Origin: an uncultured virus (IMG/VR IMGVR_UViG_3300027229_000184)
Lineage: Duplodnaviria > Heunggongvirae > Uroviricota > Caudoviricetes
Strand: one strand, 5' to 3'
Length of the DNA: 64,000 bases
Virus record (IMG/VR): IMGVR_UViG_3300027229_000184
In this document: positions 3,674-56,400 of the stretch, in pieces
Layout of the letters: each line of letters opens with the position of its first letter
Position numbering within the stretch: the stretch's first letter is position 1
Notes under the pieces: generated by a model
The model's input: the letters and a program-made list of their open reading frames with translations, nothing else
Told to the model about the DNA's origin: nothing
Databases searched by the model: none
Program-made: the position numbers and the translations under genes

Positions 3674-5878
3674 ATGGCAAATAGAATTAAAAAAAATGTT
3701 GGCATTGATGCAAATGCATCAAACGTTGGAGGATGGTCAATCGCCTCAAAAGAAGGTATGGGTCCTTCATCTTCAACGGGATTCTTCAACGGTTTACAAA
3801 TTCCTACAGGAGGTTATGCACTTTATTCTAGTAACATTGATGCTAGAATTGCATCAAACGATGATGAATTAATTGAAATCCTAAATAAAATGGGAGCTTC
3901 AATCGCAGTTGACGATTTAGCTCGAGGGTTAGAATGGGCTAAAAACAATGATGTTCTAATCATTAATAGTAACTACTCAAATGTGGTCACCGATGGATTG
4001 ATTATGAACGTTGAATCTAAACACAATGAAGGCTATTATTATCAAGTTCCAACCACTAATCTTCTTTCTTCAGGTGATCCAAATTCTAATATTGCGTGGA
4101 CTAACAGCGGTGAATGGACGATTAATAACAATGCAACCGATATTGAAAAACCATTTACAAATCATGGTGGACCATCAAACGTATTGACAATTTTGAGAGG
4201 TCAGAGTGTGACAACCGGTAGTCAGCATTGGGGTTGTGCAGGTTTTAGCGGCTTGCCTTCAACAACGTACACTATTTCAGTTTGGTTTAGACAGTCAAGA
4301 GCTGGTTCAAACCAACCTTACTTTAGAACCAACGTTAATAACAATTCTTTAGGTAATTTTAATTGGAATGGAGACACTAATGCTGCAAACTGGCCCGTTA
4401 ATCAATGGATCAGAATTTCATGTACTGCAACTCTTCAATCTAACGAAACTGGAGCGTATTTGAGTAACTATATCGGAGGAGAAGCTAGAGATATTGTTTG
4501 GTACTATGCACCTATGGTTGAATTAGGAAGTATTATGTCGCCGTTTGTGCACGGTTCTAGATCAGAGAATAACACTTGGATTGATTTAACTGGAAATGGA
4601 AACCATGCTTATAAAGGTCAAGGAGAATGGAATGCAGCTAAAAGATATTGGGATTCAAAATTTGATCCAGCATATTATGGTGGTAAAGACAGATTGCAAT
4701 TTAATGTTTCTCACTCAGCTTCTTTGAATGATGCTATGGCCAAAACATCAGGTGGTTGGGTAATTGAAGAACTTGTTAGAATCGACGATAACACATATCC
4801 AGAAGCTGCAGCAGGTGCTGTTATTTCAGGTGGTTATGGATCTGGGTCAATCGGCTTTGATTGGAACCATGGTGTATATAACACCGCAATTAGAATGGGT
4901 CTAGCAGATGGCTCACTGTCAAATTACACAATTGACGCTTCATGGCCCCTGCCTTCTAAGTTTCAAACTCTTGGAAAATGGTATCGTAGAAGCTTTTTCT
5001 GGAATAGAGATAATAATACAATGGGTGTCTATTACAATGGTGAATTGATTGGAACTACGGACATTTCATTAACAGCTGGTAAAATATTATATGATGGTGG
5101 AGGCATTTCATTCGGTGAAATGTACGGATGGTGTCACGATGGAGCTAGAGCAGAAATAAAATTGTACAATAGAATTCTTTCTCAAGAAGAAGTTTCTCAA
5201 AACGTGCATGGCGGTCCTATTGTAACAAATGGTTTAACATTCGCAGCTGATGCAGGTAATTTAATATGTTATGAAAGCGGATCTACTTCTATGTACTCAT
5301 TAGCAGATTCTCTTGAAGGAACTTTGGTAAATGGCACAGGATGGAATAGTTCAAATGGTGGTTTTTGGGAATTTGATAATTCGAATGATAAAATTATTAT
5401 TCCAAATAACGCAGCATTTAATCATACTTCACAATTAACTATAGAATCATGGGTAAGGTTTGATGGTAACAGCGATGATTTTATATTTGAAAAAGGTGAT
5501 GTAAATACCCAGTATAGTTTGTTTAGCCATGGTACAGATATAGTATTTAGAACTTACCACGCAGGTGATGGCGGATATGATACATTTGCTCCTAATAAAA
5601 CCGAAGTTGGCATTGTTAATGGTCAGTGGCACCACATTGTGGGTTCTTGGGATGGTTCAACAAAGCGAATTTACGTTGATGGAGTTGAGAGACGTAGCAA
5701 ATCTAAAAGTGGAGCTCTTGTTACAACTTCTAAAGGGGCTGCTATTGGAGCATTTGGCGGTGATACATCAGGGTATTATTTTGGTGGAGATATTGCTATA
5801 GTAAGAATTTACAATAAAGGTTTATCTACTAGTGAAGTTCTTCAAAACTATAATGCACATGTAACAAGATTCAAATAA
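3674..5878 (+). CDS. Virion protein with carbohydrate-binding-like and two LamG/concanavalin A-like domains
   Basis: WHHIVGSWDG...IYVDG...IG...GDIAIVRIYNKGLSTSEVLQNYNA; a second LamG-like copy precedes it. Confidence 0.85.
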   Translation: MANRIKKNVGIDANASNVGGWSIASKEGMGPSSSTGFFNGLQIPTGGYALYSSNIDARIASNDDELIEILNKMGASIAVDDLARGLEWAKNNDVLIINSNYSNVVTDGLIMNVESKHNEGYYYQVPTTNLLSSGDPNSNIAWTNSGEWTINNNATDIEKPFTNHGGPSNVLTILRGQSVTTGSQHWGCAGFSGLPSTTYTISVWFRQSRAGSNQPYFRTNVNNNSLGNFNWNGDTNAANWPVNQWIRISCTATLQSNETGAYLSNYIGGEARDIVWYYAPMVELGSIMSPFVHGSRSENNTWIDLTGNGNHAYKGQGEWNAAKRYWDSKFDPAYYGGKDRLQFNVSHSASLNDAMAKTSGGWVIEELVRIDDNTYPEAAAGAVISGGYGSGSIGFDWNHGVYNTAIRMGLADGSLSNYTIDASWPLPSKFQTLGKWYRRSFFWNRDNNTMGVYYNGELIGTTDISLTAGKILYDGGGISFGEMYGWCHDGARAEIKLYNRILSQEEVSQNVHGGPIVTNGLTFAADAGNLICYESGSTSMYSLADSLEGTLVNGTGWNSSNGGFWEFDNSNDKIIIPNNAAFNHTSQLTIESWVRFDGNSDDFIFEKGDVNTQYSLFSHGTDIVFRTYHAGDGGYDTFAPNKTEVGIVNGQWHHIVGSWDGSTKRIYVDGVERRSKSKSGALVTTSKGAAIGAFGGDTSGYYFGGDIAIVRIYNKGLSTSEVLQNYNAHVTRFK

Positions 5879-22517: not shown

Positions 22518-22603
22518 AAAAGTTTGAACTTTTTTCACTGAACTGTTTCACGGTTCAGATTTTTTTGTTATATTTACCCAGTAACCACCAAAAAACAAAG
22601 AAT

Positions 22604-23215
22604 ATGGCAACTTATCGCGAACTCACAGAAAATTACATTGCAACTCGTTCACACGAAGATTACACCGCTCTCTACCGTAAGGTAAAGCCAGGCCTTCAAA
22701 ACTACGTCAAGAATATCATCAAAGATAGTGATATCGCTGAAGACATCGCAGTCAACACTTTAATTAAGATGTGGACTAAGATCGATCAGTATGATCCACA
22801 GTATCAGATCACCACTTGGTTATATCGCATTGCTTACAACGAATCTTTGTACTACATTCGCGAACGTAATCGTAAGACTTCAATCGATCGTCTTCGTGAC
22901 GAATACGGAGTAGAAGTTACAAGCATGAATAATGTACGTGCTCTTGAAGAATTAATCGATGATGCAGCTTACAAATCTGAAATGGATTGGTACGAAGAAG
23001 AAAGTGAATTGAACGATACGTATGAAAATGCATTGAAAGCAATTCGCGAGCTCAAGCCTTTATACAAAGACATCTTAGTTGATCGTTTGATCGGTAACAT
23101 GAAGTATGAAGACATTGCCAAGAAGCACGACCTTCCTCTTCAAACCATTAAGAATCGTATTCGTCGTGGCCGTACACTAATTGTTGAAGCAATCGGAGTA
23201 GAAGTAAACTTTTAA
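22604..23215 (+). CDS. ECF-type RNA polymerase sigma factor
   Basis: AEDI...K...YD....TWLYRIAYN (region 2); YEDIA...TIKNRIRRGR (region 4). Confidence 0.92.
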   Translation: MATYRELTENYIATRSHEDYTALYRKVKPGLQNYVKNIIKDSDIAEDIAVNTLIKMWTKIDQYDPQYQITTWLYRIAYNESLYYIRERNRKTSIDRLRDEYGVEVTSMNNVRALEELIDDAAYKSEMDWYEEESELNDTYENALKAIRELKPLYKDILVDRLIGNMKYEDIAKKHDLPLQTIKNRIRRGRTLIVEAIGVEVNF

Positions 23216-24299: not shown

Positions 24300-24452
24300 A
24301 TGAACTCGTTAGCACAACTCGTAGACATTATCGCAGAACACCCATTCGCATCACTATTCTTGGTTATGTGTGTTGCATGGGTAGTTAATACAACCATCGC
24401 CACAATTAAACCATGTGACTGTGGTGAAACAAAGAAAGATTCAGATATATAA
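24300..24452 (+). CDS. Small membrane protein (50 aa)
   Basis: MNSLAQLVDIIAEHPFASLFLVMCVAWVV... Confidence 0.5.
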   Translation: MNSLAQLVDIIAEHPFASLFLVMCVAWVVNTTIATIKPCDCGETKKDSDI

Positions 24453-24473
24453 GTCTCAAACAAAGCTAAAACA

Positions 24474-24551
24474 ATGCGTACACTAATTCAACATAACAAT
24501 AAATTCTGCATCTGGTATCCAGGTGAGAATGAGGCCTATGTGAAAATGTAA
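24474..24551 (+). CDS. Putative attenuator leader peptide MRTLIQHNNKFCIWYPGENEAYVKM
   Basis: 25-codon ORF after the GAAAC-N17-TATAA promoter (24426-24452); contains the complement of the downstream terminator 5' arm. Confidence 0.6.
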   Translation: MRTLIQHNNKFCIWYPGENEAYVKM

Positions 24552-24574
24552 GTACTGTTTTACTTAACGTTCTT

Positions 24575-24612
24575 GAAAGGCCTCATCGAAAGATTGAGGC
24601 CTTTCTTTTTTT
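24575..24612 (+). terminator. Intrinsic terminator/attenuator directly before tRNA-Cys
   Basis: gaaaggcctca-tcgaaagat-tgaggcctttc-ttttttt. Confidence 0.88.
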
Positions 24613-24686
24613 GGTGAGTTGCTCGAGTGGCCTAAGGGAGCTGTTTGCAAAACAGACGTTCAGTGGTTCGAATCCACTACTCACCT
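24613..24686 (+). tRNA. tRNA-Cys(GCA)
   Basis: Cloverleaf; acceptor ggtgagt/actcacc, loop ttGCAaa, ggttcgaatcc, U discriminator. Confidence 0.9.
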
Positions 24687-24809
24687 CAATCGCAACCGTA
24701 AAAAAGTTTCGTAAAAGTTTTACCGGGTCAAGTTTTTGTTGTATATTAGCCCAGTAATCATCAGATAGTGGTTCAAATTTAACGGAGACAGTAAACCTTA
24801 ATTAAATTT

Positions 24810-28855: not shown

Positions 28856-29941
28856 ATGAAAAGTCATAAGTTTTTAGAAGCGTACTTAAATGCTTACGCT
28901 CCTGTTGCACAGGAAACAGAAGGTCAAAAGATGTGGATGCGTTACATTTCAGACTTTTCACATTCACTTCACATGGACGCATACGGCACTGGTTATGGTG
29001 TTTACCGTTGCGGTAAAGAAGGAGCCAAGAAAGTTGTGATTGAAGCACACTGCGATGAGATCTCATGGATCATTACACACATTGAAAAAGACGGCTACAT
29101 CCGCGTTCGTCACCATGGAGGTTCAGACAATATGATCGCCCCTTCTAAAACAGTTATCATTCATACGCACGACGGTCGACAGGTTAAAGGTGTGTTTGGT
29201 TGGCCTGCGATCCACACACGTACCGAACGTACTTCTAAAGGTTACGAACCGCATGAATTGTGGATTGATGTAGGTGTTTCTTCAGACGAGCAAGCTGCTG
29301 AATTGGGAGTTGAAGTTGGATGCTTGGCTACGTTCGATACACAATTCAGCATGATTGGAGATTACTACGTTGGCCGTTCGTTGGACAATAAGATTGGAGG
29401 TTATATTATTGCTGAGGTCCTAAAGCGCATGGCGCTTGATGGTGAGAAGTTGGATTTTGACCTGTACGTGGTTAACTCGGTTCAAGAAGAAGTTGGCTTG
29501 TACGGTGCAAAGAAGATTGCAAAAGAACTGCAAGCTGATTTGGCCCTAGTGCATGATGTTTGTCACAACGTGGCTCACCCAAAGATGGATAAAGCCAAGC
29601 ACGGACCAGTTGAAGGTGGTAAAGGTCCTTCATTAGAGTACACTTCACAGAATCACCGTGGCATTCTAAACAAGCTGAAAGAGGTTGCTAAAGCCAATGA
29701 GCTGCCATTACAACATCATGTTGGATCTTACGGCAACGACACGATGGCTTTCTTTTTGGAAAACACTCCAACTGCAATCTTGGCCTCACCGCTGAAGTAC
29801 ATGCACACCACAGTCGAGATGGTTCATCGAGATGACGTTGAAAACTGTATCAAGTTGTACATCGCATTCTTGAAAGATATTGACGACGAGTGGATCGATA
29901 ACATCAACAACCCCTTAAACACTGGTATCCTTGAACTCTAA
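28856..29941 (+). CDS. M42 family aminopeptidase
   Basis: EAHCDEI, SLDNKIG, VQEEVG, YMHT. Confidence 0.92.
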   Translation: MKSHKFLEAYLNAYAPVAQETEGQKMWMRYISDFSHSLHMDAYGTGYGVYRCGKEGAKKVVIEAHCDEISWIITHIEKDGYIRVRHHGGSDNMIAPSKTVIIHTHDGRQVKGVFGWPAIHTRTERTSKGYEPHELWIDVGVSSDEQAAELGVEVGCLATFDTQFSMIGDYYVGRSLDNKIGGYIIAEVLKRMALDGEKLDFDLYVVNSVQEEVGLYGAKKIAKELQADLALVHDVCHNVAHPKMDKAKHGPVEGGKGPSLEYTSQNHRGILNKLKEVAKANELPLQHHVGSYGNDTMAFFLENTPTAILASPLKYMHTTVEMVHRDDVENCIKLYIAFLKDIDDEWIDNINNPLNTGILEL

Positions 29942-35202: not shown

Positions 35203-36513
35203 ATGATCAAAGTAGGGTTACCCTCTGCACTTATTTATGGTTGGGATCGAGTTGGTGAGCATCGTTTATTGACATCACTCTATCATGAAGAAAACCTTCA
35301 GGAGAATGTTCTGTGTTATTCGTATCCAGACTCTTCTTCATTTGCTGAGGATTTTGCTCGCCATCGACCTGATGTTATTGTTACCATCGGCGGTAATCGA
35401 CAGGATTGGACACAACTTGTGTCTCGCATCAATGAAACTTTTATCACCACTAAGTGGTGTCATTATAGTCAACTACCTGTTGATTTTCAACTTGCAAACG
35501 ATATTGTTTCACATGCAACTAATTGGGCTTGCTTTTCATTAGACAAGGTTTTTGATGATCCAAATCGACCTTATTTTTCAGTTTTCACAGGTGCTTATAA
35601 GACGGGAGATAGATTGTATCGAACTTACGAAGGTATTAAAAATCAAACCTATCCCAATTGGGAATGGATCGTAATTGATGATTCTCCAGAAGATCACACT
35701 GAAACATGGACCATTCTACAAGAATTGGCCAAAAAAGACTATCGAGTTAGACCTTATAAGATAACTCCAATTTCTGGCGGTAATATCGGTGAAGTTAAAA
35801 ATAGAGCATGTTCAATGGCCAATGGAAACTGGTTCGCTGAACTAGATCATGATGACTTTTTCTTACCAGAATTGTTTGCTGAAACCATAAAGGCCATCAA
35901 TCAATATCCTGACGCTGGTTTTGTCTACACTGACGTCGCAGAACCATTTGAAGACGGTGAAATGAGAAAGTACACTAGCACCATTGGACCTGAAGAGTAT
36001 TGGTATGCACACCCTGAAAACGGATTTGTATGGGGATATGGTGGTCACGAATGGGTTGAATGGAATGGTACTGAATACCTGTGTCACTCATATCCTGACA
36101 TCAATCCCAGAACTATTCGATTCAACATTGGTATGCCAAACCATGCTCGAATCTGGCGTAAAGACGTGTACAATAAAATTGGAAAGCATAATCGATTCAT
36201 TTCTGTGGCTGATGATTTTGAGTTAATCATTAGAACGTTTCTAGAAACAAAAATGATTCACATCAAGAAAATGTTGTACTTACAGTACAATAATCGTAAC
36301 TCAACGGTTGATAACAATGCAACTGACATTAATAGAAAATCACGTTTGATTCGAGACCATTATAACCAACAGATTCACAATCGAATCGAACAACTCGGCT
36401 GTGTAGATTGGGATTGGAACGAAGAAACCAAAACTTCAACTCTATTTCAAATCGTCACGCCTAATCAAAAGTATTTTGAAGAAGAACAAAAGCTTAATTA
36501 CATTTACAAATGA
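35203..36513 (+). CDS. Glycosyltransferase family 2
   Basis: QTYPNWEWIVIDDS, ELDHDD, ADDFEL. Confidence 0.9.
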   Translation: MIKVGLPSALIYGWDRVGEHRLLTSLYHEENLQENVLCYSYPDSSSFAEDFARHRPDVIVTIGGNRQDWTQLVSRINETFITTKWCHYSQLPVDFQLANDIVSHATNWACFSLDKVFDDPNRPYFSVFTGAYKTGDRLYRTYEGIKNQTYPNWEWIVIDDSPEDHTETWTILQELAKKDYRVRPYKITPISGGNIGEVKNRACSMANGNWFAELDHDDFFLPELFAETIKAINQYPDAGFVYTDVAEPFEDGEMRKYTSTIGPEEYWYAHPENGFVWGYGGHEWVEWNGTEYLCHSYPDINPRTIRFNIGMPNHARIWRKDVYNKIGKHNRFISVADDFELIIRTFLETKMIHIKKMLYLQYNNRNSTVDNNATDINRKSRLIRDHYNQQIHNRIEQLGCVDWDWNEETKTSTLFQIVTPNQKYFEEEQKLNYIYK

Positions 36514-38186
36514 ATAACATAGTAATGGGAATCTCGATTGGTCACAATCGAGGAGCTGCAATCACAATCAACGGAGATCTTAAAGTTGCAATCAGCAATG
36601 AAAGAGTTACTCGCATTAAAACTGATCATTCCGATAGTTTACCACTAGAATCAATGAGATATTGTCTAGAGGCATTAAACCTGGAGTATAAAGACATAGA
36701 TGCGTTTATCTATAACACCACCGAAGACATCAATAGGGCTCCAGAAGAGTTTGAGATTGAAACCGGTATGTCAAGAGACAGATTAAACTTTGTTCCTCAC
36801 CATCTGGCTCATGCCTATTCAACTTTCTGTGCTTCTGACTTTGATGAGGCTGCAGTTGTAGTTGCAGACGCAATGGGATCAGTTTATAATGACGAAACCC
36901 CAATTAAAGATTGGTTTAAGGTCGATGAATCAGGGTTGAATCCAGGAGAACATTTAGCAGAAGGTTACTCAATTTATCATTTTTCAAGAAAAGATCAAAC
37001 CATCAATCAATCATATTGTAAGTGGGTGGTTTATCCTTTTAGAGAAGGAGATCCTGAAGCTGAAACATCAATTGGTCATAAATATGGAATGGGTTCAAAG
37101 CAACTTGTATATAACCCCGTTCACAATACGTGGCAAGCTGGAAAGTTAATGGGGCTTGCATCTTATGCTAATAAGGAGTGGGTTGATTCCCACCCGATTC
37201 AAACGAGATTTGAAGATGAAGATATGTACGTTATGGTGCAGACCTTTTATCCCGAAGTAACATGGCAATCAAACTTTCAACAAAAGGCTAACGTTGCAGG
37301 CCTCTATCAGCGTGAACAGGAATTGTCGTCCCTTCACCTTGCAAAGATGGCAAAGAAAATAACCAATTCAAATAACATTTGTGTAGCTGGCGGATCTTTC
37401 TTAAATTGTAACACTAATGAGCTTATTATTAGAGAAGGTATTTACGATAATGCATACTTCATGCCTCCTGCTGATGACAGTGGTATTCCCATCGGCTGTG
37501 CATATTACGGTTCGCATGTATTGATGGGTAAAATTCCAACTTCTGAAGGATGGATGACAGCGTATCTTGGAAAAACATATACTGAACAAGAAATCAATGA
37601 TGCAATTGACCTTTATTCTTCTTCAATTAATGTAATAAAACTTGAAGAAGATGAAATGGTAGATACTGTTGCTAATTTATTGAATGAAAATAGAGTCATC
37701 GGATGGTTTCAGAAGGGTTCCGAAATGGGTCCACGTGCTCTAGGTTGTCGTTCAATCTTGGCCTCACCAAAACAGGCTTGGATGCCACAGTACATTAATA
37801 GTGAAATCAAACTCAGGGAATGGTATCGCCCATTTGCGCCTTCGGTGCTATATGAAAAACAGGCCGAAATCTTCGAACTTGATACGTATTCTCCATACAT
37901 GCTGGTTACCACTGAAGTTAAACCAGAATGGAGAAGCAAGATTCCAGCAGTTACTCACATTGACGGAACTGCCCGCTATCAATCAGTTACACCAGATAAC
38001 AATCCAAAATATCACAAGCTAATCAGTAAATTCAATGAAGTGTCAGGCGTTCCAGTCGTGTTGAACACTTCATTCAATGGACCTGAAGAACCTATCGTTG
38101 AAACTCCTACCAATGCAATAAATACGTTCCTAAAAAGAAACTTATACGCATTGGTGCTTAATAATTATCTAATTACTCGAAAATGA
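36510..38186 (+). CDS. Carbamoyltransferase (NodU/CmcH family)
   Basis: ERVTRIK, HHLAHA, GKLMGLA, GPRALG.RS, RPFAP, LNTSFN. Confidence 0.93.
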   Translation: MNNIVMGISIGHNRGAAITINGDLKVAISNERVTRIKTDHSDSLPLESMRYCLEALNLEYKDIDAFIYNTTEDINRAPEEFEIETGMSRDRLNFVPHHLAHAYSTFCASDFDEAAVVVADAMGSVYNDETPIKDWFKVDESGLNPGEHLAEGYSIYHFSRKDQTINQSYCKWVVYPFREGDPEAETSIGHKYGMGSKQLVYNPVHNTWQAGKLMGLASYANKEWVDSHPIQTRFEDEDMYVMVQTFYPEVTWQSNFQQKANVAGLYQREQELSSLHLAKMAKKITNSNNICVAGGSFLNCNTNELIIREGIYDNAYFMPPADDSGIPIGCAYYGSHVLMGKIPTSEGWMTAYLGKTYTEQEINDAIDLYSSSINVIKLEEDEMVDTVANLLNENRVIGWFQKGSEMGPRALGCRSILASPKQAWMPQYINSEIKLREWYRPFAPSVLYEKQAEIFELDTYSPYMLVTTEVKPEWRSKIPAVTHIDGTARYQSVTPDNNPKYHKLISKFNEVSGVPVVLNTSFNGPEEPIVETPTNAINTFLKRNLYALVLNNYLITRK

Positions 38187-39502
38187 AAAAGCCAAAGAAC
38201 GTAAAAATCTGTTTAAATGCGATGGTGGGCAATGAAGAAGCCACTATCACCAGAATGTTAAAATCCGTTGTAGGTTACGTTGACTATTACGTAATTCAAT
38301 GTAACGGTAAAATCGATAACACCAAACAAATCATTGATGATTTCTTTGCTCAAAATGGAGTTCCAGGATTTACCTATGAAATTGATTGGGATTATCCAGG
38401 TTGGAACCGAGATCACACTCTTCAAACTGCTCTAGAGGCGGATCATGGATGCGATTGGATCTTACGTATGGATGCCGACGAGCAGCTTTCGGTTGATGAA
38501 AATTTCGATTGGAGTCCATTTAACGATACGATGATCGATTCATTTAACATTGTTGCCGATCCAGGAGATGCAATGTATTATCGTACATGGATGTGGAACG
38601 CTCACCGTCCATGGTTCTTTGCTCACGATAAGCGCCACGAAACAATTCACCTACCCGTGATCGGTGAAGGATTTAATCGAGTTAATCTTGAAACTGGATT
38701 CCGTCAGGTTATTACCAATGATGGTGAAACCTGGTTCGCTCCAATGAAGTTTTTGAAAGATGCTCTCGAATTAGAAAGCGATAAAGTACCTTCAAACAAG
38801 GTTCTTGAAGATGATTATCATTTATGGTACATTGGTAAATCTTATAGTGATTCTTATGGTAATCCTGATGAATTTCCATTTGGCATAGATCACGCAAGAG
38901 AATATGCCCGTCGCTGTATCTTCTATTTTAATATGTACTTGAACAAGCTTCATAATTATTCTCAAACCCAAAAGCCAGCCAATATCGATGACATGGGTTA
39001 CTATGCAATGTTCTTAATTGGTAATGCGTATAAATTCATGGGAAAATATGACATGGCTCTTGAAACTTATGAAAAGGCGCTTGAATTTAATCCCGCTCGA
39101 AATGAGGCAATGATGGCTCAAACCGAATTATTAGAGCAATTAGGTAGGCATGAAGAGATGATGAAGCTATCATTCAAAATGCTAAGGGACAGTAAGAGAA
39201 AGAATCCCTTCCCAACATATACGTTCTTGATTCATAACTCTGCGTATTATAATACGTCTGCCCACCCATTCTGGCTTCACATCAAATCTCTACGATACTT
39301 GGGCAAATCTTACGATCATGAGATCGAATGGATGAAGAGAGTTCACGATCAGATTCCTCAATACATCATTGATGATCTTGAAGGCACAACACCTCCAGTT
39401 GTTCAATCAACGCCAGAAAAATCAGTTGACTTCGTTTTGTCTAACGGTGAAACAACACCAAATCCAATTACTTTAACAGGTGTCTTCGGTATCTCAAGAT
39501 AA
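38183..39502 (+). CDS. GT2-like glycosyltransferase with TPR
   Basis: NEEATI.RML, WILRMDADE, HE, TPR-like ALETYEKALEFNPARNEA. Confidence 0.8.
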   Translation: MKKPKNVKICLNAMVGNEEATITRMLKSVVGYVDYYVIQCNGKIDNTKQIIDDFFAQNGVPGFTYEIDWDYPGWNRDHTLQTALEADHGCDWILRMDADEQLSVDENFDWSPFNDTMIDSFNIVADPGDAMYYRTWMWNAHRPWFFAHDKRHETIHLPVIGEGFNRVNLETGFRQVITNDGETWFAPMKFLKDALELESDKVPSNKVLEDDYHLWYIGKSYSDSYGNPDEFPFGIDHAREYARRCIFYFNMYLNKLHNYSQTQKPANIDDMGYYAMFLIGNAYKFMGKYDMALETYEKALEFNPARNEAMMAQTELLEQLGRHEEMMKLSFKMLRDSKRKNPFPTYTFLIHNSAYYNTSAHPFWLHIKSLRYLGKSYDHEIEWMKRVHDQIPQYIIDDLEGTTPPVVQSTPEKSVDFVLSNGETTPNPITLTGVFGISR

Positions 39503-40598
39503 GTATGATTTCCTAATCGTTGGAGCCGGACTGTATGGTTCGATATGTGCCCACGAGTTAACCAAACAAGGTTATCGAGTTTTGGTGATTGATAAAAGGG
39601 CACATATCGGCGGAAACTGTTACACTGAAAACGTTGAAGGCGTGCATGTACATCGGTATGGAGCTCATATCTTTCACACTAATGATAAACGGGTCTGGGA
39701 TTATGTCAATAATTTCGCCGAGTTTAGACAGTACAGTCATAACGTAATTGCAAATTATAAGAATAGTATCTACAATTTGCCATTCAATATGACCACATTC
39801 AATCAGATCTGGGGCGTATCCTCTCCGGAAGAGGCAAAAGATATGATTGAAAAACAACGATTCACGGGTAAAATTACTAATCTCGAAGAACAAGCCCTGT
39901 CATTGGTAGGAAAAGATGTATACGAAAGATTGATTAAGGGTTACACTGCCAAACAATGGCGCAAAGATCCTACAGAACTTCCAGCTGCAATCATCAAACG
40001 TCTACCTGTAAGATTCACATACGATAACAACTACTTTAATGATCGTTATCAGGGAATGCCAATTGGAGGGTACACTCAGATCTTTGAAAAATTATTAAAT
40101 GGTATTGACGTTCGATTAAACGAAGACTATCTTTCAGAAAAAGACTATTGGAACGCCAAAGCGCTGAAAGTCATCTACACCGGTCCCATCGATAAGTTTT
40201 TCAATTATAAACACGGTTTATTGGAATACAAATCAGTTAAGTGGCACAATGAATTGATGGATCAAGATAATTATCAAGGGTGCGCAGTCATGAATTATAC
40301 GGACGAAGAAACTCCACATACTCGTATCATTGAACATAAGTGGTTTGATGACCATGGTCAAAAGAAAACGTATGTTAGCTGGGAATTCCCCCAAGAATAC
40401 ACACAAGATGTTGAACCCTTTTATCCAGTGAATGATGACACCAATGGTCAAATCTATCAAAAATACAAGGCTTCAGCTGAAGGAATGTCAACTGTTCACT
40501 TTGGAGGAAGATTAGGAACGTATCGTTATTACGATATGCATCAGGTTGTCGCAGCAGCCCTTCATCAACTTGAAACAAACTCATTCTTTAAGGTATAA
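39480..40598 (+). CDS. glf: UDP-galactopyranose mutase
   Basis: IVGAGLYG, HIGGNCY, YGAHIFHT, GRLGTYRYYDM. Confidence 0.95.
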   Translation: MSSVSQDKYDFLIVGAGLYGSICAHELTKQGYRVLVIDKRAHIGGNCYTENVEGVHVHRYGAHIFHTNDKRVWDYVNNFAEFRQYSHNVIANYKNSIYNLPFNMTTFNQIWGVSSPEEAKDMIEKQRFTGKITNLEEQALSLVGKDVYERLIKGYTAKQWRKDPTELPAAIIKRLPVRFTYDNNYFNDRYQGMPIGGYTQIFEKLLNGIDVRLNEDYLSEKDYWNAKALKVIYTGPIDKFFNYKHGLLEYKSVKWHNELMDQDNYQGCAVMNYTDEETPHTRIIEHKWFDDHGQKKTYVSWEFPQEYTQDVEPFYPVNDDTNGQIYQKYKASAEGMSTVHFGGRLGTYRYYDMHQVVAAALHQLETNSFFKV

Positions 40599-43666: not shown

Positions 43667-44592
43667 AAAAGATTTTACTAGCCCTTTTATTAGCAGTAAA
43701 TAGTACTGCTTTTGCGTCACACATCTTAGGTGGAATGTTGGCCATGACTCATGATCCAACTTCTCAACCTAACAATCAGTCAGTTGCTCTATATCTTATT
43801 ACGGACCCGCAGGGAATCTTACCCGCAAGCCAAACAGTCGCAGTTTATATTGAGAACAATAGCTTCTATCTGTTCTCAGAGAACGTAACAGTCACTCTAA
43901 CAAGTACTGACACAATGGCGGATGGTAATCTATTGTCAACCTACGTCAGTGGATACAAGCAGTTTTACATGAGTAAGTACCGCTTCATCTATTCACATTG
44001 TTGCCGAGGCATGACTGTTAATGCATCAAATTCTTTTACTAGTGATTTCTTGATTGCTCTTGATGTTGATCGTTTGAATGCAGTGAATAATAACACTCCG
44101 ATGCCAAACTATCTACCAACATGTAGGATGCCACAGAACTTTACCAGTGTGATTGACTTAAAAGCTTTGATCAACGATAACCTGTTTGAGAATGATTCTA
44201 TTCAATATGAAATGTGGGATGCTTTAGGTCAACATGCAAACAACACCTTTGTGCCATTAGCGCCATTCAACCAATTAACAAGTTATGGTATTTACACAAT
44301 GGGTGGTGGTATGATTAATTGGACACCATCAACCGTTGGTAACTTTGTTACAGGTTATAAACTAACAGAATGGAGAAGTGGTGGTATTAAAGCATCACAG
44401 TGCTACGTTCAAATGACGTACACCATCACACCTTCTTCAATTGGTATTACTGAGTTTGAAAGAGAAAAGAAGGTTCTAGGCGTTTATGATATGCTTGGAC
44501 GTTATATTCAAAAGGATATGGAATATCTTCCATCTGGGCAACTATATTTGGTTGAATATAACACTGGATTTGAAAAAATCTTTGTCCAGTGA
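43663..44592 (+). CDS. Secreted protein with truncated T9SS type-A-like C-terminal tail
   Basis: Signal peptide, ASHILGG, CCR, C-terminal YDMLGR...GQLYLV...KI. Confidence 0.7.
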   Translation: MKKILLALLLAVNSTAFASHILGGMLAMTHDPTSQPNNQSVALYLITDPQGILPASQTVAVYIENNSFYLFSENVTVTLTSTDTMADGNLLSTYVSGYKQFYMSKYRFIYSHCCRGMTVNASNSFTSDFLIALDVDRLNAVNNNTPMPNYLPTCRMPQNFTSVIDLKALINDNLFENDSIQYEMWDALGQHANNTFVPLAPFNQLTSYGIYTMGGGMINWTPSTVGNFVTGYKLTEWRSGGIKASQCYVQMTYTITPSSIGITEFEREKKVLGVYDMLGRYIQKDMEYLPSGQLYLVEYNTGFEKIFVQ

Positions 44593-44597
44593 TAAGT

Positions 44598-46658
44598 ATG
44601 AAAAAGTTCTTATTGGGTCTCTTTATGATCCTCGGTCTAATGACCCAAGCAAGTCACCTTTCAGGCGGTGACATTCAATACCGCTATATTGGCGATTCAA
44701 CTGGCGTGGCCAGACAGTACAAGGTAATCCTGCGAGTTTATAGAGATGTCACAGGAATCGGCATGCCTACGACCGAAACGGTTACAGTTTCATCAAACTG
44801 TTATGCAAACATTAACGTTCCTATGACTCTACAAGCGGGTTCAGGATTGGTTGCTCCAACATTGTTTGATTGTGTAACAGTAGGTAGCGCTGGAACCAAA
44901 ACACTTGAAATTTATACTTATAAAGGGTATGTAACACTACCAGGTGCTTGTTCCACATTTAAGTTTTGGTACTCTAATTGCTGTAGACCAGGTGGTATAA
45001 CAAACATTAATACCTCAAATGGATTTGGTAATGATGGCTTTTTCTTCGATGCAAACCTAGATAACATGTTAGGTGAGAATTCTTCACCAATCTTTATATC
45101 TGAACCTGTTCGTGCATTTTGTGTGGGTAATGCATTTAATTGGGCACAGAAGAGCGTTGAGTATGATGGCGACAGCGTTCATTATGAAATGATAAACTGT
45201 AGAGAGAATGCGTATCCTAATCAAACTAACATTCCATTTGATGCAGGTTGGTCAGCAACTCAGCCAGTAACTTCAACCTATTTTAATCTGAATCCAAAGA
45301 CTGGAACCATTTCATTCTTGCCAACTCAGCAAGAGATTGATGTGATGAGCATTAAGATTACTGAATACAGGTATGATTCACTCTATTATATCTGGTATCA
45401 AGTCGGTTCAGCGTCAAGAGATATGATGATCTCTATTTCAGCTAACTGTTCACCGGCAGCATCTCAAGGCGTAGTGTTGGATTACAACTATCCAGGACAA
45501 TACATTGATTCAGTTACGATGTTACCTGCGATTGATTATGATTGTGGAGATTCAGTGATTGATTTGAACTTCTTGGTTAAATTAGATTGTGAATCTATTT
45601 CAGAGGATGGAACTGATTTCCGATTAACTAATCCATTGGGTCAACCAATTCCAATCAGTAAACTTTCTGCAACATGTGATGTGAACGGCGAAACTCAAGC
45701 CATTCGAGTTCATCTATTCAAACCATTGTTGGTAAATGGCAGATACTTCCTCTATTCAAAGACCGGTAACGATGGAAACACCCTAACCAATAAGTGTGGA
45801 TTCCCAATGAACGAGTTCGACACGTTGGTTATCATTGTAGATGATTGTTTTGAACCAGTGTGGGATTTTAAGAATGTGAGCGTGGTAAATGATAACCACA
45901 CTACTCTACAATGGACAAGAGATTCTACATCATTCGATACAACATATTTTGACGGATACGGTATTTGGAGATGGGATGGAACTCAGTATCAATTCCGCCA
46001 GTTGGTTACTAATTGGAAGAAAAAGCACTACGATGATCTAACTGCCACTAATGTTGGCAATCAAACATATTCGTATAAGATTGACTTTAGATACAGTGGA
46101 TTTACATTCGGACCTTCAGATTCAATTCATTCTATTTGGCTAAGAGGTAGCGGTGAATGTGATTCATTGTATTTGATTTGGAATCAATACAACGGTTGGC
46201 CAACTCCACAATATGATGTTTACATAAACTATCAAAACCAGTGGATCAAGTGGAACGATATTGCAATCACCGACACAACATACTGCATGAAATCCGATAC
46301 TTTGGAGGTGGGCAATTATGATGTGAAAGTTGTTACCACAAATGGAGGATACACTTCAGAGAGTAACTATGTCAGATGTGTTCAACCCGAACCTCCTTAT
46401 GTCGTAATTCCTAACGTCATTACTCCAAACGGAGATGGTATAAATGATATGCTTACAATTCAAAATCTAATGAATTGGGACAATAGAGCATTAACCATCT
46501 TTAATCGATGGGGAGGTATTGTCTTCAAGACTGAGGACTATCGAAACGACTGGAACGGTAGTGGAGTATCAGATGGAGTGTATTTTGGAGTTCTAGTAAT
46601 ATCCGACAGTGGAAGATTAGAAACATACAACTTCATAGTAACCGTTCTGAGCGAATAG
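44598..46658 (+). CDS. Secreted protein with gliding-motility-associated (T9SS type B) C-terminal domain
   Basis: ASHLSGGDI.YRY, CCR, C-terminal IPNVITPNGDGIND...IFNRWG...WNG...DGVYF. Confidence 0.88.
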   Translation: MKKFLLGLFMILGLMTQASHLSGGDIQYRYIGDSTGVARQYKVILRVYRDVTGIGMPTTETVTVSSNCYANINVPMTLQAGSGLVAPTLFDCVTVGSAGTKTLEIYTYKGYVTLPGACSTFKFWYSNCCRPGGITNINTSNGFGNDGFFFDANLDNMLGENSSPIFISEPVRAFCVGNAFNWAQKSVEYDGDSVHYEMINCRENAYPNQTNIPFDAGWSATQPVTSTYFNLNPKTGTISFLPTQQEIDVMSIKITEYRYDSLYYIWYQVGSASRDMMISISANCSPAASQGVVLDYNYPGQYIDSVTMLPAIDYDCGDSVIDLNFLVKLDCESISEDGTDFRLTNPLGQPIPISKLSATCDVNGETQAIRVHLFKPLLVNGRYFLYSKTGNDGNTLTNKCGFPMNEFDTLVIIVDDCFEPVWDFKNVSVVNDNHTTLQWTRDSTSFDTTYFDGYGIWRWDGTQYQFRQLVTNWKKKHYDDLTATNVGNQTYSYKIDFRYSGFTFGPSDSIHSIWLRGSGECDSLYLIWNQYNGWPTPQYDVYINYQNQWIKWNDIAITDTTYCMKSDTLEVGNYDVKVVTTNGGYTSESNYVRCVQPEPPYVVIPNVITPNGDGINDMLTIQNLMNWDNRALTIFNRWGGIVFKTEDYRNDWNGSGVSDGVYFGVLVISDSGRLETYNFIVTVLSE

Positions 46659-47992: not shown

Positions 47993-48588
47993 TGAAAAGA
48001 TTAGGTCTTTTATTACTGTCACTGATTGCGCTTCAAGGCTGTGCGCAACAGTACACTGATTACAACGGAGTAGAATGGTATTCAACCTATATGGATGGGT
48101 TGTATTCTCAAGAGCTTGAGCAACCCTTGGTGGTTAATTACATTATCCTATGTACAGAGGGTGATGCAACACGAAACGGTTTGGATTTCTATAAACCAGA
48201 TTACATCCATACTTCTGATGATGCAGATTATTATAAGAACGAATGGGACAAAGGTCATTTAGCTCCTGCGGCTGATTACAAATGTGATCAAGATGCAATG
48301 GATGCAACCTTTACGTACTTAAATTGTGCTCTACAACAGGAGAAGCTGAATAGAACCACCTGGAAGTATTTAGAAGAGTTTGAGAGAGATCTTACAGAGT
48401 TTGGAGATGTTACCGTTACTATCGAAGTTGACTTCTCAGATTCACCTAAAAGAGTTCTAGCAGGTGCCGCGATTCCAGAAGGTTTTTACAAGCAGATCAT
48501 GGTAGGAGATACAATGATGTGTTTTTGGTTCCCTAATAAAGTTCCAACCAGTTCAGATTTTCGTGATTATGAATGTGATTGCCGATAA
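47992..48588 (+). CDS. DNA/RNA non-specific endonuclease (secreted/lipoprotein)
   Basis: DKGHLAPAAD, TF.YLN...Q...LNR..W..LE; signal peptide with Cys. Confidence 0.9.
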   Translation: MKRLGLLLLSLIALQGCAQQYTDYNGVEWYSTYMDGLYSQELEQPLVVNYIILCTEGDATRNGLDFYKPDYIHTSDDADYYKNEWDKGHLAPAADYKCDQDAMDATFTYLNCALQQEKLNRTTWKYLEEFERDLTEFGDVTVTIEVDFSDSPKRVLAGAAIPEGFYKQIMVGDTMMCFWFPNKVPTSSDFRDYECDCR

Positions 48589-48592
48589 CGGA

Positions 48593-48997
48593 ATGCAGCT
48601 ACTTACTTCACAGTTAATTAAAAAGGGTGACCTTGGGTTTCACGGCAATTTGTTTGGTGGAATTCTAATGGCGTGGATCGATACCGCGGCCGCTGCTTAT
48701 GCAATGGAAGTGTGTCGAAATCGTCGAATGGTTACCATCTGCATCGATGAGTGTGTGTTCAAGAAACCAGCCAAAGAGGGTTCAATGTTGAAAATCTACG
48801 GTAAGGTTATGAATATCGGTTCAACCTCAATCAAAATGATGTTAGAAGCTAGAGCGTATAACGTTTACACTCAAGACGAAGACATTATTCTATCAACATC
48901 AATTACATTCGTTCGAATCGACGAAGACGGTAACCCAATTCCAATCGCTGAAAAAGTTAAACAGCGATGGTTGGATGGAGAATTTGAAACAAAATAA
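48593..48997 (+). CDS. Acyl-CoA thioesterase (hotdog fold)
   Basis: HGNLFGG.LMAWID, VT, G.TS, FVRIDE.G.P. Confidence 0.9.
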   Translation: MQLLTSQLIKKGDLGFHGNLFGGILMAWIDTAAAAYAMEVCRNRRMVTICIDECVFKKPAKEGSMLKIYGKVMNIGSTSIKMMLEARAYNVYTQDEDIILSTSITFVRIDEDGNPIPIAEKVKQRWLDGEFETK

Positions 48998-49036
48998 AAT
49001 CGGGCTATATAATCTATAATCTTTAAAATAGAGAGC

Positions 49037-49255
49037 ATGCAACTTACACTTGAACGTCTTAATGGTGAATATCTTTCATGGGCTGTTGAATTCGGTGAGG
49101 GTAGAAACAACAATGACATTCGATTCGGTCAAATGATTCATAACAAGTATGATCTACCCGGTAAGGTTGACGTATTCTATATTGAAGGAACTGAAAGAGC
49201 TTATACAAGTCTTCTAGCTTACGTTGAAGAAGACAAAATTCAGAACACATTATGA
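49037..49255 (+). CDS. Hypothetical protein
   Basis: RFGQ motif ORF after promoter. Confidence 0.65.
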   Translation: MQLTLERLNGEYLSWAVEFGEGRNNNDIRFGQMIHNKYDLPGKVDVFYIEGTERAYTSLLAYVEEDKIQNTL

Positions 49256-52776: not shown

Positions 52777-53211
52777 ATGCTTTTAGAGTTTCAGAACAAT
52801 CACATTCCAGACAAGCTTTACTTAACTAAAAAGTTGGAGCCTAAGACCGTTCAAAAGGTTTTGGGCTCCAACGTTTTTACGGTCGATCGATTGTATCAAA
52901 TAGCAAACGATCAATTGACCAAGATCGATATTGTGGATCAAAGAGCAGACGGTATTCTATATCGAATTTACGTTCGTATGCAACATGCGTACGCTGGAGA
53001 AGCCAGAATTCAAGTTGGTAACATCAAGCCCTGGAAATCTCTGTTAAGAAAGAAACCCTATTGGACTCTAAGGGCTATCGTCGAAACACAGGATCATAAC
53101 GTGATCTATACCTTCGAGCACAAATACACTAACATCAATCATTTACACCGTGACATCATGGATCAGTATGAACATCTTCATGCGTTCATCATCCGATTGA
53201 AACAAAATTAA
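52777..53211 (+). CDS. Hypothetical protein
   Basis: ORF. Confidence 0.65.
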   Translation: MLLEFQNNHIPDKLYLTKKLEPKTVQKVLGSNVFTVDRLYQIANDQLTKIDIVDQRADGILYRIYVRMQHAYAGEARIQVGNIKPWKSLLRKKPYWTLRAIVETQDHNVIYTFEHKYTNINHLHRDIMDQYEHLHAFIIRLKQN

Positions 53212-53249
53212 AGAAAGTTATATAATCTATACATTTAATCAATTTAATT

Positions 53250-53477
53250 ATGTCACAAGAAACAACAACTCAAGAAAACTTGAATCAAGCTAATGAAGAG
53301 CAATTGAAAGCTCAATTCGCTCCAGTGTTTGAAGAAGCAAAGAACATCGATGCTGATTCAGCTCTAAACATTTTGATTCAGGCTGCGATGGCAGCACAAC
53401 AGACTGGCGCTCTAAGCGTTCGTGATTCTGTTCTGCTTGCTTCTGCAATCAGCGTAGTTCGTCCAGGTACCATCTAA
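53250..53477 (+). CDS. Hypothetical protein
   Basis: ORF after promoter 53199-53225. Confidence 0.7.
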   Translation: MSQETTTQENLNQANEEQLKAQFAPVFEEAKNIDADSALNILIQAAMAAQQTGALSVRDSVLLASAISVVRPGTI

Positions 53478-53490
53478 TAAAAATTAGAGG

Positions 53491-56400
53491 ATGCAAGTAG
53501 CGTTATGGATTGATACTCCTGCGCTGGGCGATACAATTGCAGCTATTCCAACGCTTCGTAAACTGTCACAGGTCTATAATCAGCCTGTGACAGTTTTTAC
53601 GAGCTTACCTTCAATCTTTGAAGGACATCCTTGCGTTAAGGAAGCGTTTCACTCAGATGCGGACAAATCAGATTACAAAGTTTATCGTACTTTTGCGCCT
53701 TTAGTTGGTGCAACTTATGACTTGAAAGGCGAGAAGGTTGAGTTTCGTCACTCAAACTCTGAAATTCGTCAGTTTCACGCAATGAGTTTAGGTTTCAATC
53801 TCACACCTGATGAGATGGAAACGGACTTGTACATTGAAGAGGAACTTGAATTACCTGTAAAAGATTACGTCATCATTCACCCTACTCACACTTGGGCCAC
53901 TAGAACCTGGGATCAGGCTAATTGGCAAGAGTTAGTGGACAGGTTGAATGATCGTGGTATTCCAGTGGTTGCCATTGGTCATGATTCAAAGGAAGTTGGG
54001 TTCTATAGCGTACAAAAGCCTGTAATGGACATTAACATCAAACATGGTGTTAATTTGCTAAACAATCCTATTACTACAATTCCAGCTTTACGTTGGATGA
54101 TGAATCACCGAGCTAAAGCAGTGGTAACAATGGATTCTGGCATTCTTCACATTGCTGGAACCACGGATGTTGAAATCATTCAACTAGGATCTTCAATCGA
54201 TCCAAAGCTAAGAGCACCTTATCGAAAGGGCTCACAAGATTACAAATACAAATACATTGCCGGTGGTTGTGGACTATTTTGTAGTTCAAACATGGCTTAT
54301 AATGTCAGAGTTCATGGCAGCCTCCACGGTGTACCTCCACAGATTCACTGTTTGGAAAATAAGCCAACTATGGAATGTCACCCAGGAGTGAATCCAGTGT
54401 TCGAGGCAGTATGTCAAAGATACGATGTTAGACCAAAGATCAGATTGGTTCATTTGCTTTTAAAGGATGATCATTCGCCTGAACGTCAACAAAGATCAAT
54501 CGATAGTATTTCTCAACTTGCAGATCGAGGTATTGAATACATTCAAATTTGGAATGAACGCTGGAAGGACGCTCCTCCTCGTGAAACCTTTGAGTACCCT
54601 GATCAGTTTGACAAGGTTCCCATCGGTCCAGGTCATTATGGCAATTATCGTGCATTCGTTGATTCTGGTTTAGAACATTTCACAGAAGACATAGATGCTT
54701 TAATCTTTGCCGAAGGAGATTCTTTCTTGACCAAACCAATCGACGAGGTCGTGGAAGATATTAATCGTGCTTATGAAGCTTGTGAATTACATAACATTTC
54801 ATATTTTTCATTCGGTTCACGCTATTCTCTGCATGATTTTAACGATCTAATTTCATCTACACGATATAAGATTGGAGATATTCACGTGGTAAATAAAGTT
54901 ATCGGAGCACAATTGGTAATGTTACACAATAGAGTTCAATACTATTGTTCAGACAGGTTTATTCATCAAAAGTGGACTGCAGCTGACATTTATCTAAACA
55001 ACATCATGATGGGCAAGTTCAACATTGGTATTTTTGACCAACCTGTTGCACTGCAAGCCGACGGTTTTTCTGCTATTGATTCTTATAACAAGATTCACGC
55101 CGATGAAAGATCTCGTAACTCTAAGAAAAGAATTCTATTCTTGGCCCCTCACCTTTCAACGGGTGGCATGCCAGAATTCCTATTGGGTCGACTAAAGGCC
55201 CTGATTGACGAGCCTTCTGTTGAGCTTCATGTCGTCGAGTTCACATGTTACGCTACAACATACGTTGTTCAAAGGGACCAGATTCGCCAAATGTTAGGTG
55301 ATAGATTCCATGAAATTGGTCACCTAGGTTCAATGGAAGATTCAGAACGTGAAGAGCGTCTAAAGCAAATCATTAGTCAGATTCAACCTGACGTTATTCA
55401 CATCGAGGAAAGTCCAGAGGCCTTTGATGGTTTCAACAAAATGTCAGAAGAGTGCCAATCATGGATCTACCAGTCATCGCATCCTTGGAGGATTGTGGAA
55501 ACTTGTCACAACATTTGGTTCAATCCGAGAGAAAACAAACGCATCTCTCCTGATGCCTATTTGTTTGTCACTCCTCACCACACGCTTGAGACATTCTCCG
55601 AGGAACCATCCGAGAAGTTTGAAGCCTTCTATCCAATCATTCCTCAGACTAAGTCCGAGTTGCAAAGGAGAAAATCTTTGGAAATTTTAGAATTGGAGCA
55701 TTTATCCGATGCAAAACATCTAATCAATATCGGTCTCTGGACCCAAGGCAAAAACCAAGGAGAAGCCGTTGAATGGGCCCGCACCCTGGAACAGCAATAC
55801 CCCGGTCAATACCAGTTCCACTTCATAGGCAACCAGGCTGAAAACTTCGAAAGCTACTGGGGCCCCATCATGCAGGACTTGCCTCCGAACGTCCACATCC
55901 ACGGCGAGCGTAACGACATCAACACATTCTACCAACTGGCAGATGGAGTGGTCTTTAACTCTACCTGGGAGTGTAACCCCTTGGCCCTTCGTCAGGCCCT
56001 AGGCTACCCAATCCCAGTGATGGCTCGTAACCTGCCGCAGTACCACTCAATGTATACAGGGCAGCTCACAGAAATCCAAGGAGACACCACCGATCCCCTC
56101 CGATTGGTTGAAGCCTTAAAATCTCCAATTCATAGAAAACAAAACGACCAAGCCATGGCTAAATTCAAGCAAGAACACTTACAAGCTTACATGAAAACCC
56201 TTAAAGGCCCAGTGATCAGAACCGCTCAAATCAGAGATGGGTACACAATCCAGTGGAACAACGGCCCAACTGTCCGATCAAAGGCCGGCCGCCCACTTGA
56301 TGTAGAATTTTGGGCTGATGGTGAATTGGTATACAAAAGTACCTTACAAGCTGAGGGCTATTGGTGCAGGCCGGCCGACGAATGGTTCCGAGATTGGACC

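Follow-up and report, generated by a model that had tools for sequence, protein, structure and literature searches.

An attenuator-like leader in front of the tRNA-Cys gene of an uncultured phage

We analysed a stretch of 64,000 nucleotides (nt; hereafter the window) from the uncultured virus record IMGVR_UViG_3300027229_000184 of IMG/VR (Duplodnaviria; Heunggongvirae; Uroviricota; Caudoviricetes), and within it the leader that precedes a transfer RNA (tRNA) gene for cysteine. The window covers bases 95664-159663 of the 170,561-base-pair (bp) record, which is about 70% complete. The locus is best explained as a self-contained expression cassette for the phage tRNA-Cys (tRNA-Cys and tRNA-Trp in relatives), in which a promoter, a short open reading frame (ORF) and an intrinsic terminator stand directly before the tRNA gene. 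A segment of the leader can pair with the 5' arm of the terminator; this alternative pairing is rarely matched by chance and is conserved in a diverged relative, and the leader probably acts as a terminator/antiterminator switch of some kind. Whether a translating ribosome runs the switch, as in a leader-peptide attenuator, is more doubtful, and we put that reading forward tentatively. The locus is attenuator-like in design; its membership of the attenuator class is unproven, with both the classical runs of control codons and the classical 1:2 structure missing.

Organisation of the leader

The locus had been proposed, in a sequence-only reading, as a leader-peptide attenuator gating a phage tRNA gene, and the parts which that reading named are all present (Table 1): the 25-codon ORF, the 11-bp terminator with its T7 tract, and tRNA-Cys from 24613, with the correction that the tRNA ends at 24687 and not at 24686. 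The exact complementarity of 24529-24537 to 24578-24586 was confirmed, as was the single Cys codon TGC at 24507. The promoter placed at 24426-24452 scores below the threshold of a sigma-70 scan but belongs to a class with nine copies in the genome, where 0.44 are expected. A second promoter near 24742, mentioned as a caveat, was also found (TTTACC-17-TATATT), and recurs in the related loci L007, L008 and L017.

Table 1 Features of the tRNA-Cys leader in the window, in the diverged relative L018 and in the variant from metatranscriptome runs.
Feature	Position	Strand	Basis or remark
50-amino-acid (aa) ORF (context)	24300..24452	+	ORF list; 3' end overlaps promoter motif
Promoter motif TGAAACAA-N13-TATATAA	24425..24452	+	member of nine-copy genome class
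Leader ORF, 25 codons (MRTLIQHNNKFCIWYPGENEAYVKM) + TAA	24474..24551	+	ORF list; putative, translation presumed
Single Cys codon TGC (codon 12)	24507..24509	+	read directly
Single Trp codon TGG, within 5' arm of leader hairpin	24513..24515	+	read directly
Leader hairpin	24503..24530	+	minimum free energy (MFE) fold; core CAUCUGG-UAU-CCAGGUG at 24509-24525
Region 2, antiterminator strand, AUGAGGCCU	24529..24537	+	exact reverse complement of 24578-24586
Small spacer hairpin AAGUA/UACUU, inside antiterminator loop	24550..24565	+	antiterminator-forced fold
Terminator hairpin	24575..24605	+	stem 24575-24585/24595-24605, 11 bp, GC-rich; loop 9 nt
Region 3; region 4	24578-24586; 24595-24605	+	terminator arms
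U7 tract	24606..24612	+	last base directly before tRNA-Cys
tRNA-Cys (GCA), putatively gated gene	24613..24687	+	ARAGORN; Rfam tRNA 50.6 bits
Next, independent promoter (AAAAAAGTTT ... TTTACC-17-TATATT)	24700..24747	+	promoter scan; recurs in relatives
Copies of the promoter motif, window	24425, 27980, 48985, 53198	+	pattern count
Copies of the promoter motif, genome	20097, 67730, 69486, 69663, 71357	+	pattern count
L018 promoter motif	3859-3886		ATG 21 nt later
L018 leader ORF	3908-3976		22 codons
L018 hairpin			CUUCUGG-UAU-CCAGAAG
L018 region 2	3962-68		GAGGCCC, complementary to GGGCCUC in terminator 5' arm
L018 terminator			11-bp stem, 5-nt loop; TTTCTTTTTTT runs into tRNA-Cys at 4036
Variant, C>T	24483		synonymous
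Variant, A>G and T>A	24496, 24511		amino-acid changes
Variant, extra C	after 24525		frameshift; ORF of 19 codons ends at TGA 24530-32, inside region 2
Variant, C>T	24535		region 2; leaves a G-U pair (8 bp + one G-U)
Variant, two changes	24555, 24556		loop of small spacer hairpin
Variant, G>A	24575		outermost terminator pair lost

The core of the leader hairpin is extended by five more pairs and a bulged G24508. The terminator hairpin alone has a folding energy of -19.3 kcal/mol; it was missed by our pattern scan for terminators, which allowed loops of up to 8 nt. A promoter between terminator and tRNA-Cys was considered and rejected, since the U tract abuts the tRNA. The promoter at 24700..24747, which serves a 64-aa ORF and the Lys-Tyr-Phe-Met tRNAs, is the downstream limit of any control by the terminator alone.

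In the mechanism that we propose, the usual phage tRNA promoter would start a leader of about 155 nt ending in a strong intrinsic terminator that abuts the tRNA, and the tRNA would be made only when the terminator is bypassed. Bypass would come about when region 2 pairs with the 5' arm before the 3' arm is transcribed. The choice of fold would most likely be set by a ribosome on the short leader ORF: one held at TGC or TGG would melt the leader hairpin and free region 2, giving readthrough and more tRNA, and one running over region 2 to the stop codon would block the pairing and lead to termination.

Rarity and folding of the alternative pairing

To judge the pairing against chance, we compared the window leader with 2000 dinucleotide shuffles of itself. 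A complement as long as 9 nt arose in 1 of the 2000, and a duplex as good in energy in 2 of them; the 7-nt complement of L018, the diverged relative described below, was equalled in 24 of 2000. As a control within the genome, the 5' arm of every hairpin followed by a T run was scored for pairing with its own upstream 112 nt, and the window terminator came second among 43 such candidates and first on the coding strand. The leader is also strongly structured as a whole (MFE -48.8 kcal/mol, z = -5.9, with 0 of 200 shuffles as good).

The full-length MFE structure contains the terminator in all three sequence variants, by a margin of 13.0-14.5 kcal/mol. The terminator fold and the best antiterminator fold have energies of -48.8 and -35.2 kcal/mol in the window, -47.5 and -34.5 kcal/mol in L018, and -51.8 and -37.3 kcal/mol in the variant carried by the metatranscriptome runs. 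In nascent transcripts that end before the 3' arm, the naked RNAs of window and L018 fold into the antiterminator: its seven core pairs have a probability of 0.91-0.99 in the window and 0.98-0.99 in L018.

A ribosome was modelled as a 28-nt mask on the leader. With TGC or TGG in the ribosomal A site, the antiterminator was predicted at 0.98 or above in all three variants. With the ribosome at the stop codon and a footprint to A-site -15, its probability was 0 in all three, a result that is partly built into the mask. The stop codon lies 12 nt past region 2 in the window, 5 nt past it in L018 and inside it in the frameshifted variant. Leader hairpin and region 2 share 2 nt in the window and none in L018. 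As modelled, the fold logic is consistent with attenuation run by a ribosome, as a two-state version of it.

The module in relatives and natural variants

Loci L013-L018 were recovered in a scan of metagenomes, and a further variant from contigs of four metatranscriptome runs (the run-borne variant). Together with the window this makes about three independent sequences; L013-L016 are near-identical and uninformative. The region itself is present in identical form on four metagenome contigs, one of them 223 kb long. MAFFT set the terminators of window and L018 out of register, and the pairs of these two were therefore compared by hand and with a script.

L018 is the only diverged relative found with the module. 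Its glycosyltransferase is 77% identical at the protein level, and 123 of 193 aligned leader columns (64%) are identical to the window. The conserved blocks coincide with the functional candidates, namely promoter, ATG, leader hairpin, region 2, terminator and terminator-tRNA junction, the last being the same in both. The leader hairpin still pairs in L018, where an A-U pair of the window is replaced on both sides by U-A and a U-G pair becomes U-A through a single substitution. The two competing pairings covary: where the window has A in the 5' arm L018 has G, and C replaces U in both the 3' arm and region 2. Conservation in related phages had been named in advance as the check on the attenuator idea, and the ORF and a covarying antiterminator are thus kept in the one diverged relative, with covariation at one position. 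The leader peptide is less constant, 10 of 22 residues being identical between window and L018.

The tRNA-Cys of L018 is followed by a second tRNA with anticodon CCA (L018 4107-4182), whose 3' end is cut by the end of the contig. The window is without this second tRNA (24688-24712), yet its leader retains TGG. The tRNA-Cys genes of the window and of L018 (4036-4106) are too diverged for MAFFT, with lengths of 75 and 71 nt and Rfam scores of 50.6 and 38.6 bits, although long identical blocks persist in the leader before them. An exchange of the tRNA behind a retained leader may account for this.

In the related locus L017 (74% identical), promoter, ORF, terminator and tRNA are absent together, and a homolog of the 50-aa ORF stands directly before the next promoter. 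The terminator therefore belongs to the cassette and not to the upstream operon, and the promoter-ORF-terminator-tRNA module is, as far as these alignments indicate, inherited as one cassette. Homologs of the 50-aa ORF are 40 aa long in both L018 (38% identity) and L017 (35%); a Pfam scan of the 50-aa ORF gave no match.

The run-borne variant is about 94% identical to the window, with an unchanged promoter motif (for its differences see Table 1). The inserted C can pair with the bulged G24508, and the changes in the leader hairpin roughly cancel in stability. One low-depth contig (run X19) is without the 24511 change and the insertion, so that its 25-codon frame is intact. Downstream of tRNA-Cys the variant contigs resemble the Cys-Trp spacer of L018, and one has 119 bases where the window has 23; the variant probably has a second tRNA (73 nt, by arithmetic only). 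Contigs from all four RNA runs span the junction of terminator and tRNA; these may derive from DNA, and we draw nothing from them about transcripts or their ends. A reading of the leader ORF as a micro-protein gene was considered and is unlikely, as the natural +1 frameshift replaces the C-terminus; that the frameshift is tolerated argues that the peptide itself is not the product.

Wider searches returned no further copy of the module. For relatives in IMG/VR the figure shared in the neighbouring glycosyltransferase is about 59%, and the tRNAs that they have at this position are different ones. Against IMG/VR, the tRNA-Cys 20-mer, the pattern of 3' arm, T run and GGT, the alignment of the 50-aa ORF and the Cys-Trp spacer each gave 0 matches; the pattern of hairpin and GAGGCC gave 13, all unrelated and none with a tRNA; and for the pattern of promoter and ATG there was no tRNA within 450 nt among the at least 80 loci (81 matches) listed. 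The pattern of 3' arm, T run and GGT gave 10 matches in GTDB genomes, all unrelated. GenBank phages yielded tRNA-to-tRNA matches and no relative of the leader, and the records of five relatives yielded 26-nt T-arm matches only. Within the genome and the relative loci, the hairpin motif was found only in copies of the module and at one unrelated site.

A promoter class shared with other tRNA genes

The leader promoter is one of nine copies of TGAAAC-N15-17-TATA[AT]A in the 170.6-kb genome, all on the + strand; in 50 shuffles the mean was 0.44 and the maximum 3. Five of the nine stand 9-162 nt before tRNAs (Arg 55, Leu 75, Glu 9, Pro 22 and Cys 162 nt). Among these five, the Cys copy is the only one with an ORF and a canonical U7 terminator between motif and tRNA, and the same class runs straight into tRNA-Pro and tRNA-Glu. 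The leader ATG lies 21 nt past the motif in both window and L018. This spacing is gene-like: two further copies of the motif stand 24 nt upstream of the ATGs of a 72-aa and a 75-aa ORF, at 49037 and 53250.

The phage encodes a sigma factor at 22565-23215, with Sigma70 regions 2 and 4 in Pfam and an extracytoplasmic function (ECF)-like character. Its closest relatives in GenBank belong to huge uncultured phages, Prevotella phages and crAss-like phages, where they are annotated as 'sigma-W factor'. TGAAAC resembles the -35 element of promoters of the sigma-W ECF type, and by this analogy the sigma factor encoded by the phage may read the TGAAAC class and drive the phage tRNA genes.

Other tRNAs of the genome and of a relative also have hairpins close to their 5' ends. 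Outside the window, at genome 69692-69765, tRNA-Leu(UAG) is preceded by the same promoter class and a 75-nt leader without an ATG but with two hairpins, the second of which is weak and is followed by U5, ending 3 nt before the tRNA. At genome 70229-70271, tRNA-Thr is abutted by a GC hairpin of 9-10 bp without a U tract. The Leu and Thr hairpins may be further regulatory or processing elements. In the related locus L011 (2098-2230, minus strand), a 34-aa Cys-rich ORF (CxxC...C...C) with three CAA codons runs into a terminator hairpin with a T6 tract, which stops 2 nt short of tRNA-Gln(UUG). The arm of this terminator has no complement upstream, 916 of 1000 shuffles doing as well.

Codons of the leader ORF

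The sequence-only reading had pointed out that a run of twelve leader codons is, with one exception, read by tRNAs of the phage itself. This is literally true but not above chance: the 18 tRNAs of the phage genome read 70.3% of the 49,621 codons in its long ORFs, and the leader, with 21 of 25 codons readable (P = 0.096) or 11 of 12 in the cited run (P = 0.088), does not differ significantly from that.

The leader of every variant has TGC once and TGG once. Of the coding codons of the phage, 0.61% are Cys codons and 1.51% are TGG, and at this usage both codons are expected in 2.6-4.3% of peptides of such length. TGC stands at non-homologous places, at codon 12 in the window and codon 9 in L018, which hints weakly at maintenance. 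The position of TGG is kept in L018 and in the run-borne variants; this conservation cannot be assigned to coding, since TGG is part of the conserved hairpin.

A more specific version of the ribosome-run attenuator, and a subset of it, is that the Cys and Trp codons of the leader report the decoding of two rare codons and set the transcription of tRNA-Cys and tRNA-Trp. In favour of this Cys/Trp feedback idea, the terminator of L018 stands before a Cys and a Trp tRNA and all leaders hold TGC and TGG; even so, we consider it unlikely. As for the earlier suggestion that the single Cys codon is the sensor, there is no run, the position is not conserved and the match between codons and tRNAs is not significant. 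What stood of the proposed attenuator is an architecture that is real, rare and conserved in L018; the sensing of tRNA shortage or cleavage through the Cys codon is unproven.

How the terminator might be controlled

Several observations weigh against a ribosome-run attenuator. The leader ORF has no Shine-Dalgarno sequence, and it carries a single Cys and a single Trp codon in place of a run, where classical attenuators carry runs of control codons. Both TGC and TGG are also held by 32 of 368 (8.7%) random ATG-initiated ORFs of 19-25 codons in six frames. Openness of the frame is weak evidence in L018, where another frame also stays open over about 70 nt. No hairpin sequesters region 2 in the untranslated RNA of window or L018, that is, there is no trp-like 1:2 structure. 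In the run-borne variant the antiterminator has a probability of about 0.1 in the naked transcript, and the C>U change in region 2 weakens the pairing and is uncompensated. The claim that a ribosome at the stop codon overlaps the antiterminator depends in the window on the footprint: it holds with a footprint to A-site -15, and with one to -12 the antiterminator keeps a probability of 0.86. The comparison rests on about three independent sequences with covariation at one position only, and the abutting hairpins at tRNA-Leu and tRNA-Thr would fit a passive role.

The rival that survives best is such a passive terminator, which we judge rather unlikely. Promoter, ORF or non-coding leader, and hairpin-U7 would then make up a short transcription unit of their own, for a small RNA or for a throw-away peptide, or the hairpin would merely end or protect the upstream RNA after an RNase P cut at the tRNA. 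tRNA-Cys would be made at a fixed low level by leaky readthrough, and the complementarity would have no regulatory role. Given the rarity of Cys codons in the phage, a low fixed output would suffice, and the full-length MFE always contains the terminator. Hairpins abut tRNA-Leu (U5, no ORF) and tRNA-Thr (no U tract) in the same genome, and the tRNA-Gln of L011 follows the terminator of a 34-aa Cys-rich ORF. The run-borne variant has uncompensated changes in region 2, in the leader hairpin and in the outer terminator pair, which also fits a passive terminator. However, a passive terminator leaves unexplained both the 9-nt complement, met in 1 of 2000 shuffles, and its retention with a matching base change in a leader 64% identical, and such complements are absent at the control terminators. 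The four other tRNA promoters of the same class are without a canonical terminator, so that a dampener here would be a special case. As for a separate product, a protein is made less likely by the poor conservation of the peptide and by its frameshift. A small RNA could include the conserved hairpin, and no small-RNA family in Rfam passes its threshold for the leader.

A real switch could also be run by something other than a ribosome. An RNA-binding protein of phage or host, an RNA (possibly a tRNA) or pausing of RNA polymerase would act on the CUGG-UAU-CCAG hairpin beside region 2 and settle whether region 2 pairs with the terminator arm, much as in TRAP- or PyrR-type attenuation, and the ORF would be incidental. 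The hairpin is indeed the best-conserved block of the leader, with 12 identical bases and pairs that change yet still pair, whereas the peptide is conserved at 10 of 22 residues and tolerates a frameshift. The missing Shine-Dalgarno sequence also fits such a switch. In window and L018 the naked nascent RNA already forms the antiterminator; readthrough would thus be the default and a factor would be needed to impose termination. We nevertheless regard this explanation as unlikely: no candidate factor or binding motif is known, and no Rfam family, T-box included, scores above threshold, the best non-tRNA match reaching 24 bits against a gathering cutoff of 70. With an overlap of 2 nt between hairpin and region 2 in the window and 0 nt in L018, stabilising the hairpin would not sequester region 2. 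The conserved spacing of the ATG and the stops at or just past region 2 in all variants would be needless for a switch of this kind.

That the complementarity and the ORF are accidents in an AT-rich intergenic region, and that the relatives kept them for want of time to decay, is very improbable. In its favour are the small number of about three independent sequences, the four near-identical loci (L013-L016), which are uninformative, and the frequency of short ORFs, of which the genome holds 368 with 19-25 codons. Against it, L018 matches the window at 123 of 193 columns, a divergence that would have allowed decay, and yet its functional parts are the conserved blocks; the shuffle tests gave 1 and 24 of 2000.

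Comparison with known systems

The ribosome-run attenuator, our tentative reading, has its model in trpL of Escherichia coli, where the terminator fold is the more stable of the two and the antiterminator prevails only when it forms earlier. Like trpL, the phage leader combines promoter, short ORF and intrinsic terminator with a segment able to pair with the 5' arm; its putative control codons stand about 15-18 nt before region 2, and its stop codon at or just past region 2. Unlike trpL, it precedes a tRNA gene and not one for a biosynthetic enzyme, has single Cys and Trp codons and not runs, is without a 1:2 structure and a Shine-Dalgarno sequence, and belongs to a phage, probably of Bacteroidota. 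In an Rfam search of the leader only tRNA passed; Thr_leader reached 15.7 bits against a threshold of 55, through the terminator portion only, and the other leader families and small RNAs listed were likewise matches to the terminator below threshold. The pheST attenuator of E. coli, with its pheM leader, is similar in that it acts on a gene needed for decoding and has the cognate codon in its leader peptide. There, however, a synthetase is under a run of Phe codons, whereas here the product is a tRNA, which would close a direct feedback loop.

T-box riboswitches likewise choose between terminator and antiterminator, in a leader that senses the state of one particular tRNA. They bind uncharged tRNA, exceed 200 nt, contain a conserved Stem I and T-box sequence and control synthetase and amino-acid genes; the present leader is too short, and Rfam gave no T-box match up to E=10 for the window or E=1 for L018.

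The nearest published Cys sensor that we found is the set of polycysteine leaderless short ORFs of mycobacteria, in which Cys codons of an upstream ORF tie expression to cysteine supply (10.1101/834739). Those attenuators are reported to have several consecutive Cys codons, leaderless mRNAs and protein operons, where the phage leader has one Cys codon, a 5' untranslated region of about 15 nt and a tRNA. A description of leader-peptide attenuation of a tRNA gene, phage or cellular, was not found in full-text searches, whose coverage leaves out most subscription journals. The usual view of phage tRNA genes is that they are constitutive cargo, adjusting the supply of codons or standing in for host tRNAs that defence nucleases have destroyed (PMC10264068, PMC11464382, PMC11555353).

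If the leader is a ribosome-run attenuator, the phage would measure decoding capacity and dose its own tRNAs accordingly, and attenuation of the trp type would extend from enzyme genes to an RNA product. If the Cys and Trp codons are indeed the sensor, a tRNA gene would be controlled by the decoding of its own codon in a direct feedback loop, and the phage could replenish both tRNAs after decay of the host pool or its cleavage by tRNA-targeting defences. With its length of about 190 nt the locus is well suited to testing, and it has three natural controls, namely the same promoter on other tRNAs without a terminator, a relative without the cassette and a frameshifted variant.

Genomic setting

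Coding is almost confined to the + strand of the genome, with 159 ORFs of at least 100 aa there and 16 on the other strand. A marine bacterium of the Bacteroidota is the probable host: one protein of the window, 689 aa long, ends in a CHU_C type IX secretion domain (Pfam), which points to Bacteroidota, and the GenBank relatives of the sigma factor, in Prevotella and crAss-like phages among others, are taken in the same sense.

A second promoter-like family, made up of an A run, GTTT, GGGTCAA or similar, and TATATT, occurs at 24700-24747 of the window and also in L007 (3880-3950), L008 (3920-3975 and 4225-4262) and L017 (1245-1290). It is kept in several related phages before homologs of the 64-aa ORF, which has a CxxC motif and adjoins tRNA clusters.

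A gene pair is present twice, at 48563-49255 and 52777-53477 of the window, each copy having a 144-aa ORF followed by the 72-aa or the 75-aa ORF. The TGAAACAA...TATATAA motif precedes each of the small ORFs and overlaps the 3' end of the 144-aa ORF, and Pfam holds no family for the 72-aa and 75-aa ORFs. Host-like metabolic and surface genes lie at 28856-29941, 35203-40598, 44589-46658, 53491-57348 and 59522-61372 of the window, and include an M42 peptidase, several glycosyltransferases, a carbamoyltransferase, a GlmS-like GATase+SIS protein and the protein that ends in CHU_C.

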